Shown: positions 4,583-26,980 of the stretch, piece after piece
How positions within the stretch are numbered: position 1 is the first letter of the stretch
How the letters are laid out: each line of letters opens with the position of its first letter
NCBI GenBank assembly: GCA_040900025.1
Contig: JBBDZT010000022.1
Coordinates: forward strand, 1-35,532
Length of the DNA stretch: 35,532 nt
Direction: 5' to 3'
Source: Candidatus Saccharimonadales bacterium
Lineage (GTDB): Bacteria; Patescibacteriota; Saccharimonadia; Saccharimonadales; 2-12-FULL-41-12
Notes under the pieces: generated by a model
Seen by the model: only the letters and a program-made list of their open reading frames with translations
The model's database searches: none
Told to the model about the DNA's origin: nothing
Translations under genes and position numbers: made by a program

Positions 4583-4590
4583 TCACTTAT

Positions 4591-4596: not shown

Positions 4597-4647
4597 AAGG
4601 GTATTTATAGATTGAGCAATAAATCAGTGACTCTAGCAAAATGTATA

Positions 4648-4656
4648 TGATAAACT
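4648..4656 (+). promoter_or_regulatory. Candidate extended -10 (TGATAAACT), 7 nt upstream of the prs GTG
   Basis: TGATAAACT-AAATCAA-GTG. Confidence 0.35.
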
Positions 4657-4663
4657 AAATCAA

Positions 4664-6930: not shown

Positions 6931-6933
6931 AAC

Positions 6934-7605: not shown

Positions 7606-7608
7606 TGT

Positions 7609-9069: not shown

Positions 9070-9119
9070 AGATAAAATACGTACTTAAATTATAAAGTAT
9101 TTAAGTTTATTTGTCTAAG

Positions 9120-9836: not shown

Positions 9837-9839
9837 GCT

Positions 9840-10400
9840 CTAGCTGCCTAGTTTCTTATAAAGTTTATCGACTCGCTCCAGCAACTCATAACAGTAATCC
9901 CTGCTTTTTTCTGCTTCTTTCGGACTGGTTTCCAGCGCTTCCAGATTTGTGTTGATCATAGCTTGGGAGGATCTAACCGACGCTTTTAAATTAGCTAAAC
10001 ATACAACGAGGTCTGCTTTTAGCTGTGAATTGAATTTAGAGTAATTTACTTCGCAAAAAGAGATTAACTCTTCGCAAACCGCAACTATTTCTATGCTTGG
10101 AGCCAGAGCGTTTATTAACGATTCGTTGATTTTTGTCTTGCTCTTGGCCTTATAAGCCTTGCTGACTTCTTCGTAGGCTTTGATATCTGCTTCAGCCAAA
10201 TCAAGAAAAGTTTTTACCCTTTGAGATAAAGTATCGATATTTTCGGTAATATCTTCATTCTTTGTGTATTCGCACACCATTTTTAGCTGAGCGCACGCGA
10301 TTGCTCCGTTTAAAGCTGCTACTGCCCCACCTCCGGGAGTAGACTGCTTAGCTCCTAGATTATTAAGAAATTCAGCTAGCGACTCATCTCTCATATCCAA
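9840..10400 (-). CDS. Cyclodeaminase/cyclohydrolase family protein (FtcD C-domain / FchA-like, probable methenyl-THF cyclohydrolase)
   Basis: 186 aa, all-helical, with the N-terminal signature LAEFLNNLGAKQSTPGGGAVAALNGA typical of this family. The track start is TTG at 10400, but the ATG at 10394 is the more likely start. Confidence 0.7.
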   Translation of the reverse strand: MDMRDESLAEFLNNLGAKQSTPGGGAVAALNGAIACAQLKMVCEYTKNEDITENIDTLSQRVKTFLDLAEADIKAYEEVSKAYKAKSKTKINESLINALAPSIEIVAVCEELISFCEVNYSKFNSQLKADLVVCLANLKASVRSSQAMINTNLEALETSPKEAEKSRDYCYELLERVDKLYKKLGS

Positions 10401-10460
10401 ATTGTACCATTACTACTTGTCTCCTTGGATCCTTCCTCTTGCGCCACCCAAAGTCGATGG

Positions 10461-10943
10461 TTATTGGATAGATTGATCGTCGGAAAGTACTTTATCGTGC
10501 TGAGTTTTTCTAAAGTCCTGATATTTTTTAAGAAGTTCGGAGTCACCCAAAGCTAAAATTTCTACAGCAAACAAACCTGTGTTTTTTCCGCCGTTTTCCG
10601 GCATCGTTGCCAATGGAATGCCGGGAGGCATCATAACGTTTGAGAATAATGCTTCATGGTCATGACCATCTCTTTTGACCGGGATTGCCAGAACCGGAAG
10701 TTCAGTGTGAGCAGAAGCCACTCCTGCTAAATGCGCCGAGCCGCCAGCACCTGCGATTATTACTTTTAGTCCGCGTTGCCTAGCAGTTTCTATATAATTT
10801 GCGGCTTCTTTTGGTGTTCTGTGGGCTGATAAAACTCGTATTTCATAGCTTATGCCAAACTCGTCTAAGACTTTCGCGGCGCCTTGCATTATGTCCAGAT
10901 CGGACTTAGACCCCATTACTATTCCAACAAGCGGTTTTGACAT
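10461..10943 (-). CDS. purE: N5-carboxyaminoimidazole ribonucleotide mutase (class I PurE type)
   Basis: 160 aa with GIVMGSKSD, LSAHRTP and AGAGGSAHLAG blocks. The SAHR and AHL motifs point to class I. Confidence 0.9.
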   Translation of the reverse strand: MSKPLVGIVMGSKSDLDIMQGAAKVLDEFGISYEIRVLSAHRTPKEAANYIETARQRGLKVIIAGAGGSAHLAGVASAHTELPVLAIPVKRDGHDHEALFSNVMMPPGIPLATMPENGGKNTGLFAVEILALGDSELLKKYQDFRKTQHDKVLSDDQSIQ

Positions 10944-10972
10944 AATAACTATTTCTCCGATTAATTTTGTAT

Positions 10973-10978
10973 TACAAT
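10973..10978 (+). promoter_or_regulatory. Candidate -10 (TACAAT), 8 nt upstream of the purC ATG
   Basis: TACAAT-AGTAGCAT-ATG, inside the 43-nt purE/purC divergent spacer. Confidence 0.35.
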
Positions 10979-10986
10979 AGTAGCAT

Positions 10987-11934
10987 ATGGATCAAACTCT
11001 TACAGGGACGGATTTCGAATTTTCCGGGCAATCGGGCGTATATAACGGAAAAGTTCGTGATGTTTATACGGTCGGTGAAAAAATCATTTTAATCGCCACG
11101 GATAGAATCAGCGCTTTTGATGTAGTCAGTAAACAAGGTATTCCTTACAAAGGTCAAGTATTGAACCAAATCGCGGCCCACCAGCTTGAGCAAACGAAAG
11201 ACATAGTACCGAATTGGGTAGAGGGTGTCCCCGACCCTAATGTAACAATCGGAAAGAAAGCCCAGGTATTTCCGATCGAGATGATTGTTCGAGGGTATCT
11301 TGTCGGTGGTGCTTGGCGGTCATATAAAGTAGGTTCGCGCGACCTTTGCGGCAATAAGCTGGAAGACGGCATGGTGGAGAACCAGAAGTTTGATACCCCT
11401 CTGATTACGCCTACTACCAAAGCCGAACAAGGACACGATGAAGACATAACTCCCGACCAAATAATTTCCCAGGGCCTCGCGACCAAAGAAGAATGGGCGC
11501 AGCTTAATGACTACGCCGCCAAGCTATTCGCAAGAGGTACCGAGCTTGCTGCTAAACATAATCTTATACTTGTAGATACGAAATATGAGTTCGGCAAACT
11601 TCCGAACGGCCAGATAATCCTCATAGACGAAGTGCATACACCGGACAGTTCCAGGTTTTTCTACGCAGACAGTTACGAAGAAAGATTTGCCACCGGCGAG
11701 TCTCAACACCAGCTAAGCAAGGAATTCATCCGGGACTGGCTGATTCAGCAGGGCTACCAAGGTGACACGCCGGACTGGCCGGAAATGCCGGATGAAATTA
11801 TCAAGGAAATCTCCGACCGGTACATAGAACTTTATGAAAAAATCACCGGCAATGCTTTTGCAAAGGCTGCCGCAAACGAAGATGTTTCCGAAAGAATAAA
11901 ACGTAACATTAATTCGGCGCTGGAGCAGCAATGA
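10987..11934 (+). CDS. purC: Phosphoribosylaminoimidazole-succinocarboxamide (SAICAR) synthase, long form
   Basis: 315 aa with GKVRDVY, ATDRISAFD, LILVDTKYEFG and DEVHTPDSSRF blocks. Confidence 0.9.
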   Translation: MDQTLTGTDFEFSGQSGVYNGKVRDVYTVGEKIILIATDRISAFDVVSKQGIPYKGQVLNQIAAHQLEQTKDIVPNWVEGVPDPNVTIGKKAQVFPIEMIVRGYLVGGAWRSYKVGSRDLCGNKLEDGMVENQKFDTPLITPTTKAEQGHDEDITPDQIISQGLATKEEWAQLNDYAAKLFARGTELAAKHNLILVDTKYEFGKLPNGQIILIDEVHTPDSSRFFYADSYEERFATGESQHQLSKEFIRDWLIQQGYQGDTPDWPEMPDEIIKEISDRYIELYEKITGNAFAKAAANEDVSERIKRNINSALEQQ

Positions 11935-13289
11935 ATTTTGACGGTATAGACCCATTTGATGGCAGATATTTCGACAAAGAAGTGAACTCGGTTTTATCCG
12001 AGCGAGAAAGACTTATATATCAGGCGGAGGTTGAGGCTGCATTAGCTATGACATTAGCCGAATCCGGAGTCTGCAGCAAGGAAATTGCTAACGAAATACA
12101 CGCCGCTTCTAAGAAAGTTACCGCGGAGGATGTATATGAAGAGGAGAAGACCACTCGCCATGACATAAAAGCTTTGGTTAACGTGATCAAAAGGCATATA
12201 TCCAGCGAAGCCAAGCCGTATGTTCATTTCGGAGCAACTAGCTACGATATCATTGCTAACGCCCAAGTTCTGCAAATGCGAACCGCTACCGATGATATAA
12301 TTCTTCCCCGCCTCAAGGAATTACTGGAAGTGCTTGTTGGCTTAACGGACAAATATGCTGAAACTCCGCAAATCGGCCGCACCCATGGCCAACACGGCGT
12401 TCCTATAACTTTTGGCTTTGCTATTGCCCAGTACGTTTCCAGGCTAGGTAATTCCATAAAAGCTATTGAAGACTTATCCGCCGGCCTACGAGGTAAATTC
12501 TCCGGCGCGACAGGCTCTTATAATGCTTTAAGTGTTTTCGTCGATGACCCTTTGAAGTTTGAAAAAGCAGTGCTAAATAAAGTCGGTCTTAAGCCGTCGG
12601 AAGCTTCCACGCAGATTGCCCCGCCGGAATACATAATCCGCTTAATAGATGAGATGACGATCGCTTCGGGAATCCTTGCAAATATCGGCCACGATATGCG
12701 GCATCTGGCCCGTACGGAAATCGCCGAAGTACGGGAAAAATTTGAAGCCGGCCAAACCGGCAGCTCAACCATGGCCCACAAGATGAACCCGTGGAACTTT
12801 GAAAACCTAATAAGCATGCACAAGCAAATGCTTTCCCAGCAGTTAAATGCCAATCTTAATCTTACCAGCGAACATCAGCGCGACTTAACCGACTCGGCTA
12901 ACTCCCGCTTTTACGTGCTGGTACCGGCAATACTTGCTAACATGGCCAAACGAGCCACACGGATAATGAGTAAAATCGAAGTCAACGAAGAGCAAATGCA
13001 AAAAAACCTTAAGCTGACCGGCGGAGCCATTGCCGCCGAACCTCTTTATTTACTGCTTGAAAAGTATGGACACACCGCAGCGCACGAGACTGCCAAGCGT
13101 ATCGCCCATAGCGCGCTTGAAAAAGGTGCTAATCTTGCCGAAGAGGTGCAAAAAGACAGCGAAGCAAAAGACTATTGGAATAAATTTGCAGACAAGGAAA
13201 AGCAAATTATCGAGAACCCCGAAAAAAACTACCTAGGCTTGGCCGCTCAAAAAGCCAAAAACATTGCTCGAAACTGGCAAACTAATTAA
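11931..13289 (+). CDS. purB: Adenylosuccinate lyase
   Basis: 452 aa with the fumarate-lyase signature GSSTMAHKMNP. Its start overlaps the purC stop (ATGA). Confidence 0.92.
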   Translation: MNFDGIDPFDGRYFDKEVNSVLSERERLIYQAEVEAALAMTLAESGVCSKEIANEIHAASKKVTAEDVYEEEKTTRHDIKALVNVIKRHISSEAKPYVHFGATSYDIIANAQVLQMRTATDDIILPRLKELLEVLVGLTDKYAETPQIGRTHGQHGVPITFGFAIAQYVSRLGNSIKAIEDLSAGLRGKFSGATGSYNALSVFVDDPLKFEKAVLNKVGLKPSEASTQIAPPEYIIRLIDEMTIASGILANIGHDMRHLARTEIAEVREKFEAGQTGSSTMAHKMNPWNFENLISMHKQMLSQQLNANLNLTSEHQRDLTDSANSRFYVLVPAILANMAKRATRIMSKIEVNEEQMQKNLKLTGGAIAAEPLYLLLEKYGHTAAHETAKRIAHSALEKGANLAEEVQKDSEAKDYWNKFADKEKQIIENPEKNYLGLAAQKAKNIARNWQTN

Positions 13290-16200
13290 TAATCAGACCA
13301 GGATTTAGGTTGATCTTTTATTAAATCTGCTATAGTGAGTGCTCTTAAAAGTAAACGGCCGGTTTCAGCGTTGGTCATCACCGGCATGTGGTGGTCTACC
13401 GCTAATCTGCGGATTGTATAGCCGTCTATATCTTCTATGTCCTCCCTTGGAACTACTACAACTAGGTCTAGTTTCTGTTTGGCTATGTAAGTTTCCAGTG
13501 AAGGTTCTTTTCTATCCTTGATTTTATATAGCTTCTTAGCTTTTATGCCGTTTTCAGTAAAGAAATCATGAGTCCCGGGGGTTGCGAAAAGCTTAAAACC
13601 GCTTTTGATGAGACTATGAGCCTCATCTATGAACTTATGTTTTTGTTCGTCAGGTACGCTAATACAAATGTTTTTACCGCTTACTTCTTGCTCTGTAGCC
13701 AACCAGGAATTATAAAAAGCCTCTTCCAAAGTATCTCCAAAACAAGCTACCTCTCCGGTTGAAGCCATCTCTACCGAAGCTACAGGGTCGGCGCCTTTCA
13801 ATCGATTGTACGAAAATTGGGGGTTCTTAACAGCTACATAGTCCAGGTCCAGAGTGTTGTACTTTTCTTTCGGATTGAGTTTGCCTAGGATAGCTTTGGT
13901 AGCCAGCTCTATAAAATTATGCTTGGTAACCTTTGAAACAAATGGGAAACTGCGGGAAGCCCGAACGTTGCATTCAATTACCTTTATGGCATTGTCTTTA
14001 GCGATGTACTGTACATTAAACGGCCCGGTTATATTAAGAGAGCTGACTATTTGCGCGGTGATTTTCTTTACTCTCCTGATTGTTTCAAGATATAAGTTCT
14101 GAGCTGGTAGAACTACTGTTGCGTCGCCGGAATGTACTCCGGCGTGTTCTATGTGCTCGCTGATGGCGTAAATTATTATTTCCCCGTTGTTCGCCACGCC
14201 ATCAATTTCGATTTCTTTCGCCGCGCTGATAAAGTCTGAAATAACCACCGGGTGGTCGGGAGATAAGTTAGTCGCCTTATCTAAGTATTGTTTTAAGTCA
14301 GCTTCGGACTCTACAACACTCATTGCCCCGCCGGATAGCACATAAGATGGTCTTACCAACACCGGATAGCTAACTTCAGAAGCAAAACTTTTTGCTCTAT
14401 CGAGAGTTGTCACCTCCTGCCAGAGCGGCTGGTCAATGTCGATCTTTTCAAGCATTGTAGAAAACAGCTTGCGATTTTCGGCATTGTTTATGTTTTTCGC
14501 GCTTGTTCCGAGTATTTTGTACCCGGCTTTGTCTAGCGGCGTCGATAGATTATTAGCGATCTGGCCGCCAACGGACACTATAATAGGGGCAGTTTTTTCA
14601 AAATCCGCTATATCGCTAACTCTTTCGTAAGTTAGTTCGTCGAAATACAGTCTGTCGGATATATCGAAATCGGTAGAAACCGTTTCCGGATTTGAGTTGA
14701 TGATAATAGTGTTCTTCTTGTTTTTTTTCAAGGTACTAACGGTATTGACCGCACACCAGTCGAATTCAACAGACGAGCCGATACAATACGGGCCGGAACC
14801 AAGCGTAATTATGCTTTTCTTCTGAGGTACTACGTCATTTTCTTTCCCGCTGTATGTCAGGTATAAATAGTTAGTTTGGGCGGAAAACTCACCAGCTAAC
14901 GTGTCAATCAACTTAACAACCGGCTTTATGCCATAAGATAGCCTAAGTTCCCTAATCTTGCCTTCTGTAGATTTAGTTAATTTCGCTAGAGCTTTATCGG
15001 AAAATCCCAGTATTTTAGCTTTATGGAGCGAGGTTTTATCTAATTCGCCGGATTTTTTAACCAGTTGCTCATGTTTTGTTATGCTGTTGATCTGGTATAA
15101 AAACCACTTGTCTATCTTGCTAAGTTTGTTAATTTCATCGACAGTTTTGCCTTTGCGCAAAGCTTCGTAAACTGCGAATATACGCCGGTAGGTCGGATTT
15201 TTTACTTCGTCAATTACATCTTCAAACTTGTAAATATGATCGCTCAAGCCATTAGAACCGGTATTTTGCATGCGTATTGCCTTTTGCAGGGCTTCAGGAA
15301 AAGACCTGGCTAGAGCCATTACTTCTCCAACACTTTTCATCTCTGAGCCGATGCGCATATTACTGTTTTTTAATTTGGTCAGATCCCAGCGGGGCATTTT
15401 TAATGCGACATAATCAAGTGCCGGCTCAAAAAATGCAGACGTTTGTCCGGTTACGGAATTTCGCAGTTCATACAGCTTTTTGCCTAAAACCAGTTTTGCC
15501 GCAACATAAGCCAGCGGGTAGCCGGTAGCTTTGGAAGCCAACGCGCTTGAACGGCTAAGCCGGGCATTAACTTCGATTACCCTATATTCGCCGGTCTTGG
15601 AATTCAGCGCATACTGGATATTACATTCACCGACTATATTCAAATGCTTTATAGTTTTGATCGCCACTTCCCGCAAGTGATGGTATTCGTGGTTTGTGAG
15701 TGTTTGACTGGGCGCTACGACTATGCTCTCACCGGTATGAATTCCCATCGGGTCCAGATTTTCCATATTGCAAACTGTTATAGTATTGCCGTCCGAATCG
15801 CGCACAACTTCATACTCGATTTCTTTCCATCCTTCCAGGTATTCTTCTATTAAAACCTGGTTTATTTTATGAAATGCTTCGCTTGTCCGAGCTATCAATT
15901 CTTTTTCGTTTTCTATCTTGCCTGAACCTAGGCCGCCTAGCGCGAATCCGGAGCGCATCATTACCGGATAGCCAATAGTTTTAGCGGCTTTTTTAGCTTC
16001 GACAATGCTATATGTAGCTATGCTTTTAGCTGTGCTGACATTAATTTTGCTCAATGCATTTTTAAATAGTTCTCTATCTTCGGTTATTTTTATGGTCTCA
16101 ATAGAAGTACCGAGTGATCTAACTTCATATCTTTCTAAAATACCTTTGTCGTGTAGTTCCAAACCTAGGTTCAGCGCCGTTTGCCCGCCGAAACTAAGTA

Positions 16201-16441
16201 GTATCCCGTCCGGACGTTCTTTTTTAATGACTTTTTCTGCCTCGGTTACGTTAAGCGGTAGGAAATAAACTTTGTCTGCCATGCCGGGATCTGTTTGTAC
16301 GGTAGCTATGTTGGGGTTAATTAAGACAGTTTTTATACTCTCTTCTTTCAATGCTTTTATAGCTTGCGAGCCGGAGTAGTCAAACTCGCCGGCTTGACCG
16401 ATTCTAAGCCCTCCTGAACCGAGTATAAGTACTTTCTTCAT
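13286..16441 (-). CDS. carB: Carbamoyl-phosphate synthase large subunit
   Basis: 1051 aa with two ATP-grasp halves: LILGSGGLRIGQAGEFDYSGSQA, and again ITLGSGPYCIGSSVEFDWC. It has an MGS-like C-terminal domain. Its stop overlaps the purB stop (convergent). Confidence 0.95.
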   Translation of the reverse strand: MKKVLILGSGGLRIGQAGEFDYSGSQAIKALKEESIKTVLINPNIATVQTDPGMADKVYFLPLNVTEAEKVIKKERPDGILLSFGGQTALNLGLELHDKGILERYEVRSLGTSIETIKITEDRELFKNALSKINVSTAKSIATYSIVEAKKAAKTIGYPVMMRSGFALGGLGSGKIENEKELIARTSEAFHKINQVLIEEYLEGWKEIEYEVVRDSDGNTITVCNMENLDPMGIHTGESIVVAPSQTLTNHEYHHLREVAIKTIKHLNIVGECNIQYALNSKTGEYRVIEVNARLSRSSALASKATGYPLAYVAAKLVLGKKLYELRNSVTGQTSAFFEPALDYVALKMPRWDLTKLKNSNMRIGSEMKSVGEVMALARSFPEALQKAIRMQNTGSNGLSDHIYKFEDVIDEVKNPTYRRIFAVYEALRKGKTVDEINKLSKIDKWFLYQINSITKHEQLVKKSGELDKTSLHKAKILGFSDKALAKLTKSTEGKIRELRLSYGIKPVVKLIDTLAGEFSAQTNYLYLTYSGKENDVVPQKKSIITLGSGPYCIGSSVEFDWCAVNTVSTLKKNKKNTIIINSNPETVSTDFDISDRLYFDELTYERVSDIADFEKTAPIIVSVGGQIANNLSTPLDKAGYKILGTSAKNINNAENRKLFSTMLEKIDIDQPLWQEVTTLDRAKSFASEVSYPVLVRPSYVLSGGAMSVVESEADLKQYLDKATNLSPDHPVVISDFISAAKEIEIDGVANNGEIIIYAISEHIEHAGVHSGDATVVLPAQNLYLETIRRVKKITAQIVSSLNITGPFNVQYIAKDNAIKVIECNVRASRSFPFVSKVTKHNFIELATKAILGKLNPKEKYNTLDLDYVAVKNPQFSYNRLKGADPVASVEMASTGEVACFGDTLEEAFYNSWLATEQEVSGKNICISVPDEQKHKFIDEAHSLIKSGFKLFATPGTHDFFTENGIKAKKLYKIKDRKEPSLETYIAKQKLDLVVVVPREDIEDIDGYTIRRLAVDHHMPVMTNAETGRLLLRALTIADLIKDQPKSWSDY

Positions 16442-17532
16442 AGAGACTCCACAAACTTATCAAACAGCCAGTTAGTATCTGTAGGCCCGGGACATGCTTC
16501 CGGATGAAACTGTACCGAAAAAAACGGTTTTGACCGATGTATGATTCCTTCTACCGAGCCATCGTTTAGGTTATAAAAATATACTTCCCAATCTTTCGGC
16601 AATGTCTTAGCATCTACGGCGTATCCGTGGTTTTGGCTTGTTATATAACACTGCCCGGTCTTCATATCCCTGCATGGTTGATTATGGCTGTGATGACCGA
16701 ACTTTAATTTATAGGTTTTAGCTCCGGCTGCAAGTGCCATCAGCTGGCTACCCAAGCATATACCAAATACGGGCCTTTCGTCTTTTATAAGTTTTTCTAT
16801 GGTTTTGATTACAGGCTTATAGTCTTTAGGATCGCCCGGTCCGTTGGATAGCATCACTCCGTCAAAACTCTCGTTTGAAAGATTATAATCAAACGGAACC
16901 CGTAAGACATTTAGCTTTCTGCCTTGGAGCGATCTGACAATATTTTCTTTAGCGCCACAGTCTATCAAAACGACCGTTTTTATTGCGCCGGCGGTTTTAT
17001 ATAATTTTGGCTTATCGATTGAAACCAATGGCTTGTTAATTTTAAAGTTGCGCATAGTGGTGTCGGAAACTATGTAGCCGTTTTCTACACCCTCTGTCCT
17101 AAGATGGCGGGTCAAAGCCCGGGTATCCACGTTTTGGATGACGGGAACATTCTGGTCCTTTAACCACTCAAGAAATGAGTAGGATGATAATGGATGGCTC
17201 CAGTCATTTATCAGGCTGCTTAAAACCACGCCTTTTGCATGAATCTTTTCTGATTCCCAGCCGGGTTTGTGCACGCCGTAATTGCCAATCAGAGGGTAAG
17301 TAAAGGTTAGTATCTGGTCAGAGTACGAAGGATCGGTCAGTGACTCAACGTAGCCGGTCATGCCGCTGTTGAATATTACTTCCGCGGCATCGGAATCCTC
17401 TTGCCAGACAGGAACTTCTCCGGAAAATGTTTTGCCATCCTCCAGGATAAGTCTGGCAGGTTTGGTCTTAAAAAAATCGCCTTTTTGGCGACTAATATTT
17501 TCTACTTTTTGTACCCTAATATTTTTATTCAC
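16438..17532 (-). CDS. carA: Carbamoyl-phosphate synthase small (glutaminase) subunit
   Basis: 364 aa with a class-I amidotransferase core (GICLGSQL, FHPE) and a CarA-specific N-domain. It has a GTG start and a 4-nt overlap with carB. Confidence 0.93.
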   Translation of the reverse strand: MNKNIRVQKVENISRQKGDFFKTKPARLILEDGKTFSGEVPVWQEDSDAAEVIFNSGMTGYVESLTDPSYSDQILTFTYPLIGNYGVHKPGWESEKIHAKGVVLSSLINDWSHPLSSYSFLEWLKDQNVPVIQNVDTRALTRHLRTEGVENGYIVSDTTMRNFKINKPLVSIDKPKLYKTAGAIKTVVLIDCGAKENIVRSLQGRKLNVLRVPFDYNLSNESFDGVMLSNGPGDPKDYKPVIKTIEKLIKDERPVFGICLGSQLMALAAGAKTYKLKFGHHSHNQPCRDMKTGQCYITSQNHGYAVDAKTLPKDWEVYFYNLNDGSVEGIIHRSKPFFSVQFHPEACPGPTDTNWLFDKFVESL

Positions 17533-17580: not shown

Positions 17581-18141
17581 TCAATTATCTTTGGGGTGTA
17601 AAACAGCGGAAAGCAGTGCGGCTACAACTAAGAATAAGGCGCTATAAAAACCTACCTCGCCGTATAGCTCTACTTTATAACCTTCATTAAAGTTCCATGT
17701 AAAGTAAGCTATGCAGGTAAGAGAATAAATTGCGATTGAAGCTATAGCCGTTGCATACAAAGCGCTTTTACTTTTTACCAGCCCAGCGATTATTATCGGA
17801 ATTATAAACAGTATAACTGCACGGCTAGCCATTCCTCTGGTTGAATAGACGCTAAATGAAGCTAGGGATAAGTCGGTTATTATCATAGCTAACAGCAATG
17901 CCCTGTACGGGATAACATTTCCGGATTTCGACTTAACAAAGTACCAGATAAAACCGTTTACTAAAAGCAACATTGACACAACGAACCATCTGTCCAGCAC
18001 GACTTCCGGTTCTATAAGCTTAGATGTGTCATACAAAATTATCTGCGCAATAAAAAGTCCTGCCAGGGCAAAATGCACTTTGCATAGACTCAGCAAACCA
18101 GAGCCAAGGCTTAACGAACTCTTTTTGTTTATGCTTTTCAC
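17581..18141 (-). CDS. Hypothetical polytopic membrane protein (about 5-6 TM helices)
   Basis: 186-aa hydrophobic ORF with a GTG start. No family was recognised. It heads the carAB transcription unit. Confidence 0.6.
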   Translation of the reverse strand: MKSINKKSSLSLGSGLLSLCKVHFALAGLFIAQIILYDTSKLIEPEVVLDRWFVVSMLLLVNGFIWYFVKSKSGNVIPYRALLLAMIITDLSLASFSVYSTRGMASRAVILFIIPIIIAGLVKSKSALYATAIASIAIYSLTCIAYFTWNFNEGYKVELYGEVGFYSALFLVVAALLSAVLHPKDN

Positions 18142-18176: not shown

Positions 18177-18923
18177 TCAAATCTGTAGGGATGTTTTTTT
18201 ACTGCCAAAGTAACTTTGAGCCATCTCGTAATCTTGCCTGTTGTCCATCTCTACCCACTTTAGTCCGGTGATATCTATAGCCTTAAAATCAACTCCCGCT
18301 TGGATAATTTCGTCATAAGCGACTTCATAGTAATTCTGCAGATTATCTTCGTGTATCATCATAGTTTCCAGTGCTGCGAATAATGCTAAGGACGTCTTTT
18401 TGCTAATTCTTTCAATACCGATAGATTCGCCTATAGCTTTAGTAGCAGGCAACTTATTGCCTATACGAACCACATACCCTTCATCGTTGCAGATAATTTT
18501 TATAACTTCCTCGTCAAGAGAAGTACTGTCAGAGCAAACATAACTTTGCTCGTCATTTACGCTTGTAAGCTTTTTGATAATTTTATCGTCGAAAATAACA
18601 TCGCCGTCAAGTTTAATAAAAGTTTCTCCGTTTAAATACTCTTTAGCTACAAGCAGCGAATAGCCGGTATTTGTGGTCAAATATTTCTCGTTGGTAGCAA
18701 AAATAACGTCAAGTTCAGGAAATGTTTCGGCTAAATATGTCTTGATCATTTCTTCCATATGGCCGCAGACGATCACAAAAGAGTGAATTCCGTGTTTTTG
18801 GAGCTTTGTAATCATATGCTCAAGCACGGTGCTATTGCCAATTGGAAGCAGTGATTTTGGTTTATCTAAGGTTAGCGGTCGCAACCGGTTACCTATCCCT
18901 GCTAATAAAATAACTGCTTTCAT
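18177..18923 (-). CDS. LicC/PntC-type nucleotidyl(cytidylyl)transferase
   Basis: 248 aa with N-terminal MKAVILLAGIGNRLRPLT (GxGxRL) and KPKSLLPI. The C-terminal KWVEMDNRQDY matches the WxExD motif. Length and layout resemble phosphocholine or 2-aminoethylphosphonate cytidylyltransferases and IPCT. Confidence 0.8.
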   Translation of the reverse strand: MKAVILLAGIGNRLRPLTLDKPKSLLPIGNSTVLEHMITKLQKHGIHSFVIVCGHMEEMIKTYLAETFPELDVIFATNEKYLTTNTGYSLLVAKEYLNGETFIKLDGDVIFDDKIIKKLTSVNDEQSYVCSDSTSLDEEVIKIICNDEGYVVRIGNKLPATKAIGESIGIERISKKTSLALFAALETMMIHEDNLQNYYEVAYDEIIQAGVDFKAIDITGLKWVEMDNRQDYEMAQSYFGSKKTSLQI

Positions 18924-18933
18924 AGATGATTTC

Positions 18934-19734
18934 TTATTTACGCAGTGGGTAAGTTAATGATGAAGGGTTGTTGGCTGACTGATGGCCACGTTCCACGAGT
19001 CGGATAACTGCGATTGTGATCTGGCCAACTGCGAACAACCAGCACCATAAATCTGGGCGACTAACCAATGCGGCAAGAGCACCAAAGGTTACAAATTCAG
19101 CCTCATCAAGCGCAAACACCGAACGATGCCTAAACCATAGCCACAGCAAGCGTTGTTTTCCGGTTTTTGGGGTCAATTTCTTAGCTTCTAGCGACGCATA
19201 TAATTCCTGCCTTCGTAAACGCGACTTATTTAGGTAATCTTTATCACGATTAATAGCCGCAAACATAGTTTCAAGCTTGATATAGTAGCGGAATAAAATT
19301 CCAAAACAGGCTATAAAACCAAGTAGTAAATAGTAAGTTTTGTCTGTTAGGTTGTAGGCGGCAATCGCCATGGCAAAGCAAATTATGCCCAGCTTCAAAA
19401 CGTCAAGAGTTTTATCAAGATAGTCGCCGATTGATGAGGTTTTGCCCGTATAGCGCGCCAGTTGCCCGTCCAGGCAATCAAGAACATAGGAAAAAGGCAA
19501 TAATAAAGCCGCTAGAATACTCCACCAGCCGCCAACTACTATTAGCACAGCAGCTAACGCATAGAGTAAAAGCGAGCTGATAGTCACCATATTAGGCGTG
19601 AGTGCTTTTATTTTACTAGCGGGTTTTAACAGCTTGTTTGCGAACTTAGGGTACCAAAGATCACCCCAGTTACTAAAGTAGTTCGGTTCAATAACTGACT
19701 TGAGCTTATTAGACGGCATGGACAATTTCTTCAT
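18934..19734 (-). CDS. CDP-alcohol phosphotransferase family membrane enzyme
   Basis: 266 aa and multi-TM. It has a perfect family motif, DCLDGQLAR-(8)-GDYLDKTLD (DxxDGxxARx8GxxxDxxxD). Its 5' end overlaps the aminotransferase 3' end. Confidence 0.85.
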   Translation of the reverse strand: MKKLSMPSNKLKSVIEPNYFSNWGDLWYPKFANKLLKPASKIKALTPNMVTISSLLLYALAAVLIVVGGWWSILAALLLPFSYVLDCLDGQLARYTGKTSSIGDYLDKTLDVLKLGIICFAMAIAAYNLTDKTYYLLLGFIACFGILFRYYIKLETMFAAINRDKDYLNKSRLRRQELYASLEAKKLTPKTGKQRLLWLWFRHRSVFALDEAEFVTFGALAALVSRPDLWCWLFAVGQITIAVIRLVERGHQSANNPSSLTYPLRK

Positions 19735-20884
19735 GTTGATCGAGTTTTCTTGGGATGTGCATTTTTTCCAAAACGGATTCCTGCAGGATTTTTTCTAATT
19801 GGCGAAGAGCATACGATGTGTCGTTTTTACGCAATGCGCCGATGTGTCCAATCTGAAATATCTTATCTTTCAATACTCCTTTACCGCTGTAAACAATAAT
19901 GCCTTTTTCTTTTAGTCGTTCGGCCAGGTAGCCAAAACTCAAATGCTCTGGCATAGCTACGCAGGTGATAACGCTTGAGCTGTTACCGCCATATGACGCG
20001 TAGCTCAAACCCATTCGGTTGATTTCCGTACGTGTGTAGCTGGCTCTTTGGCGTATTGTTTTTTGAAACGAACCAATACCCTGTTCGGTGATTTCTTTGA
20101 GTGACGCATGAAGCGATACAAAAACATGCACAGCTGGAGTATTTGGCGTTTGGATATGATTGCGCATATAAAGAAAATGTTTATATAAGTCCAGGTAATG
20201 ACCGGTACTTGACGGTTCCGACAGGGTGTTAACCAGATCGCTTTTAATAATTAATATTCCTGCTCCAGGCATAGCGGACAGTGCTTTTCCGGATGCTCCG
20301 ACAATAATATCAACTCCCCACTCTTTGGCTCGAATCTTTTCCGCACCGATGCTACTGATCGCATCAACAGAAACAATCGCCCCGTATTTATGCGCTAGCT
20401 TAGTAATCTCTGCAACAGGGTTTAGCATACCGCTGCTGGTTTCGTGGTGTACGACAGCTACCATATGGTATCGCTTGCTTTTTAGGGCTTTAGCAACCGT
20501 TTTCAGGTCGATTTTTTCCTGCCAATCAAACTTGAGCTCATCAATGTCTTTATTGTGAAGTTTTGCGACGGCAAGCAGTCGTTCGCCAAACTCGCCGTTA
20601 CTTATAACTAACACAGGGCCTAACTTGCCTATGCTTGAAATAATTGTTTCATTAGCTGCCGTTCCAGAGCCGGTAATAAAAGCAACTTCGTAACTACTAT
20701 CGATACCTGCAATCGGTTTCAACATTTCCGCACTCTCGCTTAAAATGCTAGAGAATTCTGACTCTCGGTGGCCGATGTTTGTGCTTACGACAGCTCGTTG
20801 AACTGCCTTTGATAGCAATACAGGGCCTGGACATAACAAAATAGCTCTTGGTGTTTTACGGCCAATTTTAAGAATCGTTGGCAT
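19709..20884 (-). CDS. Class V (AGXT-family) aminotransferase, 2-aminoethylphosphonate:pyruvate transaminase-like
   Basis: 391 aa with LLCPGPV, FITGSGTAANE, ISNGEFGERL, VHHETSSGMLNP, DAISSIGA, SGKAL (PLP Lys) and IFQIGHIG. These blocks parallel my recollection of PhnW (VHSETTTGMLNP, DAMSSFGG, IVSNGAYGARM). Confidence 0.8.
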   Translation of the reverse strand: MPTILKIGRKTPRAILLCPGPVLLSKAVQRAVVSTNIGHRESEFSSILSESAEMLKPIAGIDSSYEVAFITGSGTAANETIISSIGKLGPVLVISNGEFGERLLAVAKLHNKDIDELKFDWQEKIDLKTVAKALKSKRYHMVAVVHHETSSGMLNPVAEITKLAHKYGAIVSVDAISSIGAEKIRAKEWGVDIIVGASGKALSAMPGAGILIIKSDLVNTLSEPSSTGHYLDLYKHFLYMRNHIQTPNTPAVHVFVSLHASLKEITEQGIGSFQKTIRQRASYTRTEINRMGLSYASYGGNSSSVITCVAMPEHLSFGYLAERLKEKGIIVYSGKGVLKDKIFQIGHIGALRKNDTSYALRQLEKILQESVLEKMHIPRKLDQHEEIVHAV

Positions 20885-20980
20885 TAGTAATACTTTCTTT
20901 TTTTATATTGTGACTAAAAGGTAATCACGAAAAGGCACGTTTCTTTGGTTGTGAAATCTCGAGAAGAATCTAGTATCTAT

Positions 20981-20989
20981 ACTATATCA
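20981..20989 (-). promoter_or_regulatory. Candidate extended -10 (TGATATAGT) for the three-gene cassette
   Basis: Minus-strand TGATATAGT lies about 95 nt upstream of the aminotransferase ATG. It is overlapped by the palindrome TAGTAT-CT-ATACTA (20971..20984). Confidence 0.3.
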
Positions 20990-21006
20990 CAAAAAAATTA
21001 ATTAGA

Positions 21007-21051
21007 CTAGCTTAAGCAATATGGTTGGGGGGGGCCATTTATGCTTTTCAT
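21007..21051 (-). pseudogene. Relic 5' end of a membrane-protein gene copy (MKSIN then out-of-homology, 14 codons then TAG)
   Basis: Minus-strand ATGAAAAGCATAAAT duplicates the first five codons (MKSIN) of gene 17581..18141. The reading frame then runs through a C8 tract and stops. Confidence 0.5.
21027..21034. repeat. G8 homopolymer tract
   Basis: ttGGGGGGGGcc lies immediately beside the point where repeat-B homology ends. Confidence 0.9.
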
Positions 21052-21079
21052 TTACACTAAATAAATATCAGACAAAGAG
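21038..21079. repeat. Direct repeat copy B
   Basis: See copy A. Together the two copies bracket the 2.9-kb three-gene cassette. Confidence 0.8.
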
Positions 21080-21104
21080 ATAACGTGCCAAATCAGAGTG
21101 ATCT

Positions 21105-21827
21105 TCATAAGTTTATTCGGACAAGTTTTGTATTAATTTCACCATCTTTTTCATAATTAACAATAATGTCTATAACTTTTTCAGTTTTTCTCACGTCAGT
21201 ATATACATAACCTGTTCTTGAAATACCGGTGTTTATGTTGCCTTCTAAACTGTCTTGAAAGTAGGGGTTATAGCTCCCAAACCAAATAAAAGGATTGTCA
21301 GTAAATACAGACTCTTCTACATCTCTCCCGCTGTCGGGCAGTAATGTTATTTTTAACTTGGAAGTATCTACATTGCCAAAGGCTTGAATTACATAGTCAA
21401 TGACTATTTGCTGATGCTCTTCGGAATATTTCTTGATTTCGTTTCTTGCCTTATTCCTTAGCTCGCAATCGTAAAGTGGGGAGTTACGTAATAGGCTACC
21501 ACCTGAGTCAATAAAAGCTTGCTCAAAGTCGGTGTATGGACCAACTGTATCGGATAACATTTTGCAATTTTCCTGCTTATCCATATTTCCATATTTTTTA
21601 ACTACGTTTTCTTCAAAAGGTAAATCAACTGGTTTTAATTCAGTTTTATTAATCTTTAATTCAAAATCAGGAAGTTTAACTATTTCATTTGCAAAATAGA
21701 CTTTCTTCGCTTGAGAACGATAATCAAGATATTCTTTAATACTAAATACTGACAAAGCTATTAGTAGAATTATCGCAAAATAAATCATCATTTTATTTTT
21801 AAAAAAGTTGCTTTTGTTGAGTTTCAT
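21105..21827 (-). CDS. Hypothetical N-terminally anchored protein, predicted extracytoplasmic domain
   Basis: 240 aa with a Lys-rich N-terminus followed by one TM helix (MMIYFAIILLIALSVFSI). No family was recognised. The coding sequence is AT-rich. Confidence 0.6.
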   Translation of the reverse strand: MKLNKSNFFKNKMMIYFAIILLIALSVFSIKEYLDYRSQAKKVYFANEIVKLPDFELKINKTELKPVDLPFEENVVKKYGNMDKQENCKMLSDTVGPYTDFEQAFIDSGGSLLRNSPLYDCELRNKARNEIKKYSEEHQQIVIDYVIQAFGNVDTSKLKITLLPDSGRDVEESVFTDNPFIWFGSYNPYFQDSLEGNINTGISRTGYVYTDVRKTEKVIDIIVNYEKDGEINTKLVRINL

Positions 21828-21857: not shown

Positions 21858-22517
21858 TTAATCTATCTTTAATATTCGTTTCCAGATTGGTCTATATGGA
21901 TTGACTTCGCATAAAAGACTTCCGTTATGTCTTTTATTTAAATTTACATTGAATTTCAATCTTTTTCTTCCATGATAGTCTTTAATTTCAACAGCAAGTT
22001 TTTTAGAATCACTAAATCTTGCAGTATCGATATTAATTTTTGGTGAAGAATCCGAATCTCTATTTGGCTCATAAATAAAGTAAGTAGACGGATCATTATG
22101 TTTCCAAATAAATAGTGATAGATTCATATTTTTTGCTGACTTTATTGTGACTCGCTCTTTTACATCAGACGGATTGGTCGGTATTTTCCACCATAACCGA
22201 CATATATATTCACCAGTTTCTTTGTCAATAAGCATCGCCTTACATCTGTAAGCTTCGTTACGATCAATTATTGGACCTGCTTGGAAACTTCCATGAATTG
22301 GCCAGCCGAAAAGTGTAGTTTCTCCTAGTCTTAGGCCTAGAACTCCAGGTTTATTTTGTATCGTAACGTGATTATGGTTATATTCTGCTCCCACGCCTCC
22401 ACCTGAACCACCTCCCCCAACTACTAGTTTCGGTCTTTTTATGTAATAATTTAGCCAGACCCCAAATAATAAAATGACTAGAGATACTGGTATTACATAA
22501 ATATTGAACTCACTCAT
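21858..22517 (-). CDS. Hypothetical N-terminally anchored protein with Gly-rich linker, predicted cytoplasmic domain
   Basis: 219 aa with one TM helix (IYVIPVSLVILLFGVWLNYY) followed by KRPK and then GGGGSGGGVG. No family was recognised. The sequence is AT-rich and the start lies 9 nt after the tRNA-Gln 3' end. Confidence 0.6.
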   Translation of the reverse strand: MSEFNIYVIPVSLVILLFGVWLNYYIKRPKLVVGGGGSGGGVGAEYNHNHVTIQNKPGVLGLRLGETTLFGWPIHGSFQAGPIIDRNEAYRCKAMLIDKETGEYICRLWWKIPTNPSDVKERVTIKSAKNMNLSLFIWKHNDPSTYFIYEPNRDSDSSPKINIDTARFSDSKKLAVEIKDYHGRKRLKFNVNLNKRHNGSLLCEVNPYRPIWKRILKID

Positions 22518-24723: not shown

Positions 24724-25851
24724 ATGAAAGTAGGACTAATTTGCCCTTACAATGTTTTCCGCGGTGGCGGAGTACAAGAGTATGTACTTGGTATTCGCGA
24801 CGGTTTAACAGCCGCAGGTCATCAGGCCTGGGTAATAACACCTCAACCCAGAGGCTATAAAGGACCAAAGATACCCGGCATTATCATGCTAGGCGGATCG
24901 GCTCCTATAAGAGCATTCCATACCTATGCCCAAGTATCAGCCAGCGTCGATATAGACAAGCTTGATGAAGCTTTAAGGACCTATAAGTTCGATATCCTGC
25001 ATTTTCATGAGCCTTGGGTGCCAATGCTATCAAGGCAGATACTAGGAAAATCCGATGCTATCAATATAGGTACGTTTCATGCCGCGATGAGCGAGAGAAG
25101 AACCAGTAGAACGCTTGAAAGAGTCATCACCCCATACACAAAGCCTCTTTTGAAGCGTCTGGATATATTAACAGCCGTATCCCCGGTAGCTACGAATTAT
25201 GTAAAATCCCTTACAACCCGAAAAATTTATATCATACCGAACGGTATAAACCTTAAAAAATACAAGCCTGAGAATCCTCACGAACCGGAAGGATCTTCAA
25301 AAACTATCTTCTATATAGGCAGGTTGGAAAAGCGAAAAGCCGTTGACCAGCTCTTGAAAGCTTTTTCGATAATTCAAAAATTCGATAACAGGTATCATTT
25401 AAAAATTGCCGGTGACGGCCCTCAAAAAACCGAATTGGAGGAATTAAGCAAGGATTTGAAATTAAAAAACATAGAATTTTTAGGCCAAATCGACGAAGCC
25501 GACAAAATAAAACTCCTGCAAACTTCCGACGTGTTTTGTTCGCCTGCCTTATACGGCGAAAGTTTCGGGATAGTGCTGCTGGAAGCGATGGCTGCCGGGT
25601 GCGTTATAGTGGCCGGTGCTAATGCCGGATATGAGTCGGTTTTAAGCGGAACGGGACAACTATCCCTGGCAAACCCGAAGGATAGCAAAGAATTTGCCCG
25701 AAAACTTATGATAATGGCTACAAACCAGGCTATTCGAAAGGTTTGGCTTGAATGGGCGGAATCTGAAGCCACCCATTACAGCTACGATAATATAGTTAAA
25801 AAATATTTAATGCTTTATAAGCTGGCCTATGACAAAAGACATAACAGCTAA
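24724..25851 (+). CDS. GT4 glycosyltransferase, PimA-like
   Basis: 375 aa with MKVGLICPYNVFRGGGVQEYVLGIRDGLTAAGH, FDILHFHEP and GESFGIVLLEAMAAG (EX7E). This layout closely parallels actinobacterial phosphatidylinositol mannosyltransferase PimA. Confidence 0.85.
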   Translation: MKVGLICPYNVFRGGGVQEYVLGIRDGLTAAGHQAWVITPQPRGYKGPKIPGIIMLGGSAPIRAFHTYAQVSASVDIDKLDEALRTYKFDILHFHEPWVPMLSRQILGKSDAINIGTFHAAMSERRTSRTLERVITPYTKPLLKRLDILTAVSPVATNYVKSLTTRKIYIIPNGINLKKYKPENPHEPEGSSKTIFYIGRLEKRKAVDQLLKAFSIIQKFDNRYHLKIAGDGPQKTELEELSKDLKLKNIEFLGQIDEADKIKLLQTSDVFCSPALYGESFGIVLLEAMAAGCVIVAGANAGYESVLSGTGQLSLANPKDSKEFARKLMIMATNQAIRKVWLEWAESEATHYSYDNIVKKYLMLYKLAYDKRHNS

Positions 25852-26980
25852 GCTAAAGATAGGTTTTCTTTTAGATGACGGCTTAGACAAACCGGACGGC
25901 GTACAGCAATATATATTAACTCTTGGCGAATGGTTTCAGCATAATGGCCACGAAGTCAGATACCTCGTAGGAGAATCAAAAAGAAACGATATTCCGGAGC
26001 TTATAGAGCTGTCTAAAAACCTGAAAGTTACATTCAACGGCAATAAATTGTCCGTACCATTTTGGTCTAAAACCAGAAAAATAAAAGAAACTATTGAAGA
26101 AGAAAAATTTGATGTGATTCATGTCCAAGTTCCCTTTTCACCCCTGATGGGCAACCGTGTGATTAATAACTTGCCTAAAAACACCGCGGTTATCGGGACA
26201 TTCCACATTTTGCCGCTAAAGGATTCGTTTTTTTACCGTTTGGGCAACAAAGCGACAGCTTTAAGTATAAAGTCCGGGCTCAGAAGAATCGATAAGCATT
26301 TTTCAGTATCCAAGCCCGCGCAAAAATTTTCTAAGGAAGTATATAAAATTGATAGTGATGTTTTACCAAACCCGGTAAGACTAGGAAAGATTTTGCTCAA
26401 AAGCAAAGATTTCAGCAGAATATCTAAATTCAAGATCGCATTTCTAGGCAGATTAGTGTCGAGGAAAGGCTGCATGACCTTACTTGAGGCCATCGACAAC
26501 TTAGACGAAGAACATAAAAAGAAAGTCCAAGTAAAAATTGGCGGTACGGGTTCTGATCGCAAGACGCTGGAGAATTTTGTAAAAACGCGAGGGCTGGGCA
26601 ATATCGTAAAATTCTACGGATTCATTGAAGAAGACGACAAGCACAGATTTTTAAATGAATCGGATATGGCAGTTTTCCCTTCAAAAGGCGGAGAAAGCTT
26701 CGGCATCGTACTAACAGAAGCAATGGCCGCTCAAGGACCTATAGTATTAGCCGGCGACAACCCGGGCTACAGAAGCGTATTAGAAAACGATAAGTTGCTT
26801 TTCAACCCAAATAGTTTTGCGGAGCTTTCATCAAAAATCACTGGATTTATGGATAATCCCTCAAGCATGAATACAGCGTTTACTTACCAGCAAAAGCTTG
26901 TTAAAAACTACGATATCAACAAAATCGGCGAGAGACTACTTGTCAACTTTCGTTTGATAGTTCAAAATAAGAACAAATGA
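25829..26980 (+). CDS. GT4 glycosyltransferase (second, PimA/PimB-like)
   Basis: 383 aa with DGVQQYILTLGEWFQHNGHEV, FDVIHVQVPF and GESFGIVLTEAMAA. It overlaps the upstream GT4 gene by 23 nt. Confidence 0.85.
   Translation: MTKDITAKLKIGFLLDDGLDKPDGVQQYILTLGEWFQHNGHEVRYLVGESKRNDIPELIELSKNLKVTFNGNKLSVPFWSKTRKIKETIEEEKFDVIHVQVPFSPLMGNRVINNLPKNTAVIGTFHILPLKDSFFYRLGNKATALSIKSGLRRIDKHFSVSKPAQKFSKEVYKIDSDVLPNPVRLGKILLKSKDFSRISKFKIAFLGRLVSRKGCMTLLEAIDNLDEEHKKKVQVKIGGTGSDRKTLENFVKTRGLGNIVKFYGFIEEDDKHRFLNESDMAVFPSKGGESFGIVLTEAMAAQGPIVLAGDNPGYRSVLENDKLLFNPNSFAELSSKITGFMDNPSSMNTAFTYQQKLVKNYDINKIGERLLVNFRLIVQNKNK

Follow-up and report, generated by a model that had tools for sequence, protein, structure and literature searches.

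The three enzymes of the locus

We analyzed a 35,532-nt contig from the metagenome-assembled genome of a Candidatus Saccharimonadales bacterium (GenBank JBBDZT010000022.1, assembly GCA_040900025.1; the whole stretch is hereafter called the window), in which three adjacent minus-strand genes encode a class V pyridoxal 5'-phosphate (PLP) enzyme of the aminotransferase type (AT), a CDP-alcohol phosphotransferase (PT) and a LicC/PntC-type nucleotidyltransferase, predicted to be a cytidylyltransferase (NT). An initial annotation had read this trio as three tightly packed, co-directional genes that together form a cassette for head-group activation. Indeed, the three open reading frames (ORFs) were confirmed in the ORF list of the window, with a 26-nt overlap between the AT and PT genes and a 10-nt gap between the PT and NT genes, and Pfam placed each product in the family that had been named for it (Table 1). 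A promoter/terminator scan, in which the counts did not rise above the shuffled expectation, found no terminator-like site within the trio.

The blocks VHHETSSGMLNP, ISNGEFGERL, DAISSIGA and SGKAL, from which a likeness of AT to 2-aminoethylphosphonate (AEP):pyruvate transaminases (AEPTs) had been proposed, are all present in the translation. AT carries the features of the class V branch that unites AGXT, serine-glyoxylate aminotransferase (SGAT) and AEPT, including the Aminotran_5 domain, the PLP lysine Lys200, Asp174 as the partner of the pyridine nitrogen and the PLP-phosphate loop at Thr71-Gly74; these residues are invariant and align with the AEPT and SGAT structures. When scored against NCBIfam, however, the protein stayed below every AEPT cut-off, with 266.7 vs 360.8 bits for its best match, TIGR03301 (PhnW-AepZ), 195 vs 400.8 bits for TIGR02326 and 202 vs 296 bits for NF010006, and its Shewanella orthologue likewise remained below the TIGR03301 threshold (308 vs 360.8 bits). 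A profile built from 27 members of the AT clade matched, among solved structures, the AEPT domain of Tde1415 with 260.6 bits, SGAT (2dr1) with 232, PhnW with 216-221 and AGXT (3zrp) with 211 bits. In a neighbour-joining tree rooted on SGAT and calculated without bootstrap, the clade was monophyletic and sister to PhnW and the Treponema AEPTs.

Lys200 aligns with the NK of Tde1415, whose PLP lysine is K441 (supplement of PMC6697681), and with PhnW's lysine; AT also retains Asp174, the His39-Arg40 pair, the GSGT loop and the Y-x-G-K loop common to AEPTs. The position of Gln344, in contrast, is occupied by arginine (F-R-I-G) in all of the solved AEPT and SGAT/AGXT enzymes, and the C-terminal motif of the AT clade reads F-Q-[IVL]-[GA]-[HNS]-I-G. 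Among the 120 closest homologues of AT, 114 have F-Q, two have F-L, four do not have the motif and none has F-R, whereas F-R and QTRFTPP were both found in 120 of 120 Treponema-type AEPTs. The second arginine conserved in AEPTs is replaced by Pro247, so that x-R-F-T-[SP]-P becomes Q-T-P-N-T-P, and the segment stacking on the PLP ring, N-G-[AS]-Y-G-x-R in AEPTs, is N-G-E-F-G-E-R in the AT clade. We take the F-R-I-G arginine (Arg360 in human AGT) to anchor the phosphonate or the alpha-carboxylate; Arg340 of the S. typhimurium AEPT is reported to bind the phosphonate (Chen et al. 2002), although the reviews that we searched do not mention Arg340. The loop with the second arginine, which our own alignment maps to Y260-T263 of human AGT, presumably reaches the active site of the neighbouring subunit. 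In phosphoserine aminotransferase (E. coli SerC), the His-Arg pair binds the phosphate. Since the curated score, the conserved arginines and the genomic linkage to phosphonate genes of the Ppm/Ppd or PhnX/PhnA type were all found wanting in AT, its sequence points to a separate clade, here called Q-type, that is related to AEPTs and yet is probably not an AEPT.

Among PDB entries, the NT sequence gave its best match, of 76.8 bits, with the PntC domain of Tde1415 and the next, of 58.1 bits, with LicC, and its clade profile scored 91.9 bits with LicC and 89.1 with PntC, as compared with 63 for IPCT and at most 58 for sugar-1-phosphate transferases. In the nucleotide-binding signature, for which the published consensus is GXG(T/S)RX8PK (supplement of PMC6697681), the window protein has Asn and the clade consensus Ser at the T/S position, and G9, G11, R13, P22 and K23 are invariant in an alignment of 26 sequences. 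The amine of AEP is contacted by E104 and E196 in PntC, at the positions where LicC has D105 and D192 in addition to an aromatic box (PMC6697681). D106 of NT is likewise invariant in the 26-sequence alignment, as are Y198 and Y199, which align with the aromatic 'YW' of LicC, and E200 is the residue of the window protein as well as the majority residue of its column. NT groups with the LicC/PntC cytidylyltransferases (PF12804/PF00483), with the signature and both acidic amine-contact positions in place, and its pocket looks built for a small cationic amine bearing a phosphoryl group, which would fit an amine-forming enzyme encoded upstream.

The motif D-x2-D-G-x2-A-R-x8-G-x3-D-x3-D of the CDP-alcohol phosphotransferase family (PF01066), which had been reported as perfect in PT, is complete, and all of its residues are invariant in 26 homologues. 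PT aligns with the transmembrane core of AF2299, and the PT clade profile gave 67 bits with AF2299, 46.5 with the cholinephosphotransferase CHPT1, 46 with IPCT/DIPPS and 41 with CEPT1, whereas the CDP-diacylglycerol-dependent enzymes scored lower (phosphatidylinositol synthase 32, phosphatidylserine synthase 29 and PgsA 21 bits). The nearest solved relatives of PT, as judged from these profile scores, are thus users of soluble CDP-alcohol donors, which is consistent with NT, encoded next to it, supplying the donor.

Conservation and genomic context of the cassette

We then scanned 185,579 species-representative genomes with peptide patterns from this AT clade, which gave 541 matching stretches as a lower bound, and analyzed the best 80 loci. 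Because the patterns were derived from the clade, the scan samples this clade and not all AEPT-like enzymes. Where the contexts were looked up, the order AT-PT-NT was kept around AT homologues of 42-64% identity in otherwise unrelated surroundings, such as an ATP-synthase operon, complex I genes, genes for copper proteins, ParAB or SecA/RecQ. Fifty-five distinct loci offered at least 2.5 kb downstream of AT, and 53 of them had an ORF with the PT motif and an NT homologue within 5 kb; one of the two exceptions (L077) does carry a Pfam-confirmed PT. AT was always the first gene at the loci examined, and its conservation exceeds that of PT and NT. This arrangement is far beyond chance, and the trio is a conserved, mobile operon unit, in agreement with the coupling that the initial annotation had proposed.

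The hosts among the best 80 loci include Saccharibacteria and other Patescibacteria (Levyi-, Curtiss- and Berkelbacteria), Actinomycetota (Gaiellales, Aquicultor and Thermoleophilia), Gammaproteobacteria (Shewanella benthica KT99, Ca. Thioglobus, Ca. Marithrix and Methylobacter), Alphaproteobacteria, Flavobacteriaceae of the Bacteroidota, Chlamydiae, Fidelibacterota, Zixibacteria and one archaeon. The AT of the window is 68-70% identical to those of Gaiellales and Aquicultor (Actinomycetota; L010-L013 and L026), among which it nests in a neighbour-joining tree without bootstrap, and just 38-44% identical to the AT of some other Saccharibacteria (L029 and L073 were compared), which suggests that the cassette has been transferred between the epibionts and their host phylum. 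Three loci bear taxonomic labels that look implausible, namely L016 (OZ239426.1, a 1.0-Mb chromosome labelled Oxalobacteraceae), L027 (labelled as a Bordetella parapertussis metagenome-assembled genome) and L032 (a 1.6-Mb chromosome labelled Gammaproteobacteria), in view of their genome sizes and because their cassettes group with those of Saccharibacteria/Actinomycetota or of other Patescibacteria.

An all-against-all clustering of the ORFs within 4 kb revealed no generally recurring fourth gene, only lineage-specific inserts, and neighbour clustering across the loci likewise gave no recurrent PhnX-like partner. The Shewanella-type cassette contains a PssA-like second CDP-alcohol phosphotransferase, the flavobacterial one a uridine-kinase-like (Udk-like) P-loop kinase, and some alphaproteobacterial cassettes an ATP-grasp ligase; in L077 and L087, Q-type NT::AT fusions are accompanied by a second, stand-alone NT. 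These accessory genes are consistent with head-group chemistry. Unusually long AT homologues (465-566 aa) were considered as further fusions and rejected, since their N-terminal extensions are low-complexity, rich in Ala/Arg/Pro and devoid of Pfam domains, so that they probably reflect over-called starts. At L009, genes for a LysR regulator and inositol-1-phosphate synthase, a short fragment of the CDP-OH_P_transf type and a gene for a CTP transferase resembling CarS come after the trio within 5 kb (13602-17462); together they may be a second, inositol-based lipid module.

We also searched for phosphoenolpyruvate (PEP) mutase (Ppm) and phosphonopyruvate decarboxylase (Ppd), the enzymes that the initial annotation had noted as missing from the window. 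They are indeed absent from it, as Pfam placed every ORF of at least 100 aa among the purine, carAB, cell-envelope or replication genes or gave no match; the window contains no thiamine-diphosphate decarboxylase, and the PEP mutase motif EDKxxxxxNS (PMC6697681) is found in none of its six-frame ORFs. Within 10 kb of the trio at 90 loci (the window included; 83 distinct), neither the motif (regular expression EDK.{5}NS) nor a phmmer match (E <=10) to a Mytilus PEP mutase sequence was detected. As positive controls, we used two Treponema loci with relatives of the Tde1415 AEPT domain, which are R-type PntC-AEPT fusions. At both loci a CTP_transf_like+PEP_mutase gene and a TPP_enzyme_N/C gene (Ppd) lie immediately upstream of the fusion, and both tests detected these PEP mutases, with about 150 bits. 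Biosynthetic AEPTs have been defined by their Ppm-Ppd neighbourhoods (PMC8942020), and two-thirds of the associated nucleotidyltransferases are encoded within five genes of ppm (PMC6697681).

A proposed head-group pathway and its alternatives

On balance, and with a confidence only slightly better than even, we regard the trio as an operon for a self-contained, PEP-mutase-independent head-group pathway of the Kennedy/Lic/Pnt type, which would lead to a CDP-amino-alcohol and onward to a membrane acceptor. AT would produce a small phosphorylated primary amine, other than AEP, from a common central phosphorylated metabolite, NT would join this amine with CTP to form the CDP-amino-alcohol and pyrophosphate, and PT would then move the phospho-amino-alcohol to the hydroxyl group of an acceptor, most likely diacylglycerol or another membrane lipid, with the release of CMP. 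In the lipid-auxotrophic Saccharibacteria, the cassette would thereby put a new head group on scavenged diacylglycerol. We infer the order of these steps, all of the substrates and the acceptor. Observed directly were the gene content and order, the way in which the genes are coupled and conserved, and the families to which they belong, as well as that AT has lost the arginines of AEPTs and that no PEP mutase is linked to the trio.

For the first step, our leading guess, which is tentative and has well under an even chance, is that AT might transaminate dihydroxyacetone phosphate (DHAP) to serinol phosphate, so that the pathway would end in a phosphatidylserinol-like zwitterionic lipid. We favour serinol phosphate because DHAP is universal, even in minimal Patescibacteria, because the exchange of Arg for Gln would be expected if the carboxylate of phosphoserine became a hydroxymethyl group, and because the His-Arg pair together with Lys335 could hold the phosphate. 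Furthermore, DHAP transaminases giving serinol phosphate exist: Cj1437 of C. jejuni converts DHAP into (S)-serinol phosphate by transamination (PMC11800397), and RtxA of Bradyrhizobium produces serinol phosphate from DHAP (PMC3222319).

Several points weigh against the proposed pathway or parts of it. No known lipid points to a particular product, the serinol-phosphate proposal draws solely on active-site analogy and the universality of DHAP, and phosphatidylserinol has not, to our knowledge, been described as a natural lipid. PT might also use a soluble acceptor, as DIPPS does. With the arginine, AT has lost the residue that usually holds an amino-acid donor by its alpha-carboxylate, so that it may not be a classical transaminase at all, but for example a decarboxylase. 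The neighbour-joining tree of AT carries no bootstrap support values, and the uniform Q-type of the 80 genome loci is partly there by construction, because they were retrieved with clade-specific peptide patterns. A distant PEP mutase may also exist in some hosts, as the linkage evidence covers up to 10 kb around the loci.

The enzymes could instead carry out a Kennedy-type synthesis of phosphatidylethanolamine (PE), in which AT would make phosphoethanolamine, by decarboxylation of phosphoserine or transamination of glycolaldehyde phosphate, NT would give CDP-ethanolamine, and PT would serve as an ethanolaminephosphotransferase acting on diacylglycerol. We consider this rather unlikely, although phosphoethanolamine is, of the natural phosphates, the nearest analogue of AEP, AT and NT are both nearest to the AEP-handling pair of Tde1415, and CHPT1 and CEPT1 are among the best structural relatives of PT. 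The pathway would be redundant in Gammaproteobacteria such as Shewanella, which already make PE via PssA/Psd. The PssA-like enzyme embedded in the Shewanella cassette speaks for PE synthesis. Loss of the carboxylate-anchoring arginine might be expected if an aminotransferase fold had turned into a decarboxylase; however, the class V AGXT/AEPT subfamily is not known to include a decarboxylase, and glycolaldehyde phosphate, required by the other route, is a non-standard metabolite. No sequence feature separates phosphoethanolamine from serinol phosphate. PE synthesis would also suit Patescibacteria, which are described as being without lipid synthesis (PMC11665869), and an aminotransferase-fold phosphoserine decarboxylase is known in Cj1436 of C. 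jejuni, which converts phosphoserine into phosphoethanolamine (PMC11800397).

The initial annotation had seen in the pair of AT and NT the signature of CMP-AEP synthesis, with a precursor made elsewhere or salvaged. Such a genuine phosphonolipid pathway would draw its phosphonoacetaldehyde or AEP from a Ppm and a Ppd whose genes lie elsewhere in the genome, or from the host or the environment, and is improbable in our estimate. PhnW-AepZ is the top NCBIfam match of AT, the JGI labels the AT clade phnW, AT and NT match both domains of the characterised PntC-AEPT fusion Tde1415, and NT::AT fusions occur within the Q-type itself (L077 and L087); there are also known PEP-mutase clusters with AEPT, PntC and a CDP-OH transferase, whose predicted products are phosphonolipids ('Burkholderiales_CDP-OH'; PMC8942020). 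Nevertheless, AT falls under every AEPT cut-off, and both AEPT arginines are replaced, with F-R in 0 of the 120 closest homologues as against 120 of 120 PEP-mutase-linked AEPTs. The 83 distinct loci span many phyla, and none of them has a PEP mutase within 10 kb, whereas biosynthetic AEPTs and PntCs are normally encoded only a few genes from ppm (PMC6697681), and Ppm itself occurs in just about 4% of complete bacterial genomes (PMC8942020). Salvaged AEP, moreover, would need no transaminase, and yet AT is the member that the cassettes conserve most; nor does a PhnX-like partner recur. An IPCT/DIPPS-like inositol-phosphate chemistry that feeds the nearby PimA-like glycosyltransferases had been the other alternative of the initial annotation. 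Here NT would form CDP-inositol, PT would form either di-inositol phosphate or an inositol lipid as the feed for these glycosyltransferases, and AT would be incidental; this appears very improbable. NT and PT do match the bifunctional IPCT/DIPPS model NF041135, at 69.7 and 41.8 bits far below its 580-bit cut-off, and both match PDB entries 4mnd and 2xme, but for the NT clade IPCT ranks under LicC/PntC (63 vs 89-92 bits), with an alignment confined to the N-terminal 160 residues, and NT retains the acidic and aromatic amine-contact residues. Two genes of glycosyltransferase family 4 (GT4) lie 4-6 kb away (24724-26980), on the opposite strand and in a neighbourhood that is not conserved. An inositol-1-phosphate synthase was found within 10 kb of the trio at L009 and L034, just two of the 83 distinct loci, and AT is not incidental, since it is invariably the first cassette gene and overlaps the PT gene. 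Family placement, which the initial annotation had named as a check, put AT beside the AEPTs and outside the SGAT/AGXT group, NT with LicC/PntC and not with the sugar-1-phosphate transferases, and PT nearest to AF2299, CHPT1/CEPT1 and DIPPS, ahead of the CDP-diacylglycerol-dependent synthases. The remaining option of the initial annotation, that the trio handles a different amino-phospho-alcohol, gives the best fit.

The closest known systems are the Pnt pathway, in which PntC-AEPT occurs together with Ppm and Ppd, and the predicted 'Burkholderiales_CDP-OH' clusters. The Pnt pathway of T. denticola Tde1415 (Rice et al. 2019, PMC6697681), like the trio, uses a class V aminotransferase and a LicC-family cytidylyltransferase to activate a small primary amine with a phosphoryl-type group; the two domains of Tde1415 are among the best solved relatives of the window AT and NT, and NT::AT fusions occur on both sides. 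The two differ in that Ppm and Ppd adjoin the Pnt controls and not the trio, in that the AEPT arginines correspond to Gln344 and Pro247 of AT, which scores below the AEPT cut-offs, in that NT has a LicC-like Asp at the E104 position of Tde-PntC as well as the aromatic Y198/Y199, and in that the trio always includes a CDP-alcohol phosphotransferase. The 'Burkholderiales_CDP-OH' clusters of Group 1 (Li and Horsman 2022, PMC8942020) share with the trio an AEPT-type transaminase, one or more PntC-type cytidylyltransferases, phospholipid-synthesis genes and a predicted lipid head group, and the family name refers to the CDP-OH transferase (PMC8942020, with Yu et al. 2013 as cited there). However, these clusters are defined by Ppm and Ppd and are predicted to yield a 1-hydroxy-AEP lipid, which is uncharacterised, whereas the cassette is without Ppm/Ppd at the loci examined.

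The Lic pathway, the bacterial CDP-choline route and the eukaryotic Kennedy pathway resemble the trio in that a phospho-amino-alcohol and CTP give the CDP derivative, on which a CDP-alcohol phosphotransferase then acts; LicC is the top profile match of NT, and CHPT1 and CEPT1 are among the top matches of PT. The Lic pathway is, however, completed by LicD-type transferases and not by enzymes of the CDP-OH family. The Lic and Kennedy pathways start with a kinase acting on an imported alcohol, whereas the trio starts with a PLP enzyme, which implies that its amine is made de novo. The analogy to the Kennedy pathway has also been drawn for Pnt (PMC6697681). IPCT/DIPPS, which serves di-myo-inositol phosphate synthesis, and AF2299, the best solved relative of PT, likewise pair a nucleotidyltransferase with a CDP-alcohol phosphotransferase working on a soluble CDP-alcohol, and the trio parallels IPCT/DIPPS in this pairing only; these systems include no aminotransferase, and IPCT is a poorer match of NT than LicC/PntC. 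Cj1437, Cj1436 and RtxA parallel the proposed first step, since these PLP enzymes turn central metabolites into small phospho-amino-alcohols with which the cell surface is decorated (PMC11800397, PMC3222319); the C. jejuni products are joined by an ATP-dependent amide ligase and not through CDP activation (PMC11800397). In a full-text literature search, we found no description of the cassette, of phosphatidylserinol or CDP-serinol, or of phosphonate genes in Saccharibacteria/Patescibacteria, and no characterised operon of the same composition, as the initial annotation had supposed; lipids are not mentioned in the Southlakia genetics paper.

Surroundings of the cassette and implications

Table 1. 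Positions of the cassette genes and of the residues discussed (window coordinates, except in the last row)
Feature	Position	Strand	Description
AT gene	19709-20884	minus	class V PLP enzyme, 391 aa; Pfam Aminotran_5, E 9.9e-35
PT gene	18934-19734	minus	CDP-alcohol phosphotransferase, 266 aa, membrane protein; Pfam CDP-OH_P_transf, E 1.8e-15
NT gene	18177-18923	minus	LicC/PntC-type nucleotidyl (cytidylyl) transferase, 248 aa; Pfam NTP_transferase, E 3.7e-15, and NTP_transf_3, E 3.4e-10
AT Lys200	20285-20287	minus	PLP Schiff-base lysine in SGKAL; invariant in 27 homologues; codon checked
AT residues 245-250	20135-20152	minus	QTPNTP; Q/W-x-R-F-T-P/S-P in AEPTs; codons checked
AT Gln344	19853-19855	minus	in F-Q-I-G-H-I-G; from alignment; codon checked
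PT catalytic motif	19402-19479	minus	D86-x2-D89-G90-x2-A93-R94-x8-G103-x3-D107-x3-D111, DCLDGQLARYTGKTSSIGDYLDKTLD
NT nucleotide-binding signature	18855-18899	minus	G-x-G-(T/S/N)-R-x8-P-K, GIGNRLRPLTLDKPK
NT Asp106	18606-18608	minus	aligns with LicC D105 and Tde-PntC E104; second amine-contact position; codon checked
NT Y198-Y199-E200	18324-18332	minus	E200 aligns with Tde-PntC E196 and LicC D192
Intergenic region 5' of the AT gene	20885-21104	minus	220 nt; only sizeable gap adjoining the trio
Inserts and fusions in cassettes of other loci	L041 8675-9337; L060 11905-12573; L055 8364-9680; L077 2306-4207; L087 4027-5862		

The intergenic region upstream of AT may be the promoter region of the trio, on faint indications; it contains one sigma-70-like match (21091-21064), and such matches were no commoner in the scanned region than in shuffled sequences. 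Two hypothetical proteins are encoded further upstream (21105-21827 and 21858-22517), and in one of them a hydrophobic segment at the N terminus is followed by GGGGSGGGVG, a stretch rich in Gly. The gene downstream (17581-18141) encodes a multi-pass membrane protein of 186 aa, whose PilS-like 6TM match is weak and below threshold. No homologues of the flanking genes of the window were found at any other cassette locus examined, and we place these three genes outside the unit because no homologue of them adjoins another copy of the cassette. The remainder of the window comprises purine-synthesis genes, carAB, the two hypothetical genes, which are lineage-specific, tRNA-Gln, and genes for VanY, a hydrolase, the two GT4 glycosyltransferases and an AI-2E-family transporter, together with cysS, recR, dnaB and dnaX. 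The purine genes form a near-complete de novo set (3-17532: a partial purL-like ORF, purM, prs, purD, purN, purF, folD, an FTCD_C-domain gene, purE, purC and purB), which is followed by carB and carA; such a set is unusual for a Saccharimonadales contig, since Patescibacteria are generally described as being without nucleotide biosynthesis (PMC11665869). A 440-aa ORF between recR and dnaB (31368-32690) has no Pfam match.

The distinction between the Q-type clade and AEPTs also bears on current annotation. The JGI annotates Q-type proteins (P0004, P0009, P0015 and many others) as 2-aminoethylphosphonate-pyruvate transaminases, which, judging from their active-site residues and gene neighbourhoods, is likely to be a systematic mis-annotation. 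Surveys that count phnW genes may thus over-count phosphonate use, including that of marine Gammaproteobacteria and Flavobacteria, because the Q-type proteins possess neither the AEPT arginines nor a phosphonate gene context. A simple diagnostic is available, as the signature FQIG/QTPNTP as opposed to FRIG/QTRFTPP separates the Q-type clade from AEPTs.

If the proposed pathway is correct, the cassette would represent a widespread head-group route that nobody has assigned so far, with at least 541 matching loci among the species-representative genomes. It would amount to a Kennedy-type pathway of bacteria whose amine comes from a PLP enzyme, and it may define a new bacterial head group. Going further, we would entertain as a speculation, with distinctly less than even confidence, that the cassette makes an undescribed and widespread class of membrane phospholipids whose head group is an amino-alcohol phosphate from central metabolism, for example in phosphatidylserinol derived from DHAP or as an amino-polyol phosphate derived from a sugar phosphate, and that Patescibacteria use it to tailor diacylglycerol scavenged from their hosts. 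Patescibacteria are said to be without lipid synthesis and without a known route of lipid acquisition (PMC11665869). The cassette would offer a concrete three-gene candidate for the tailoring of their membranes, and it may explain how these lipid auxotrophs finish them.

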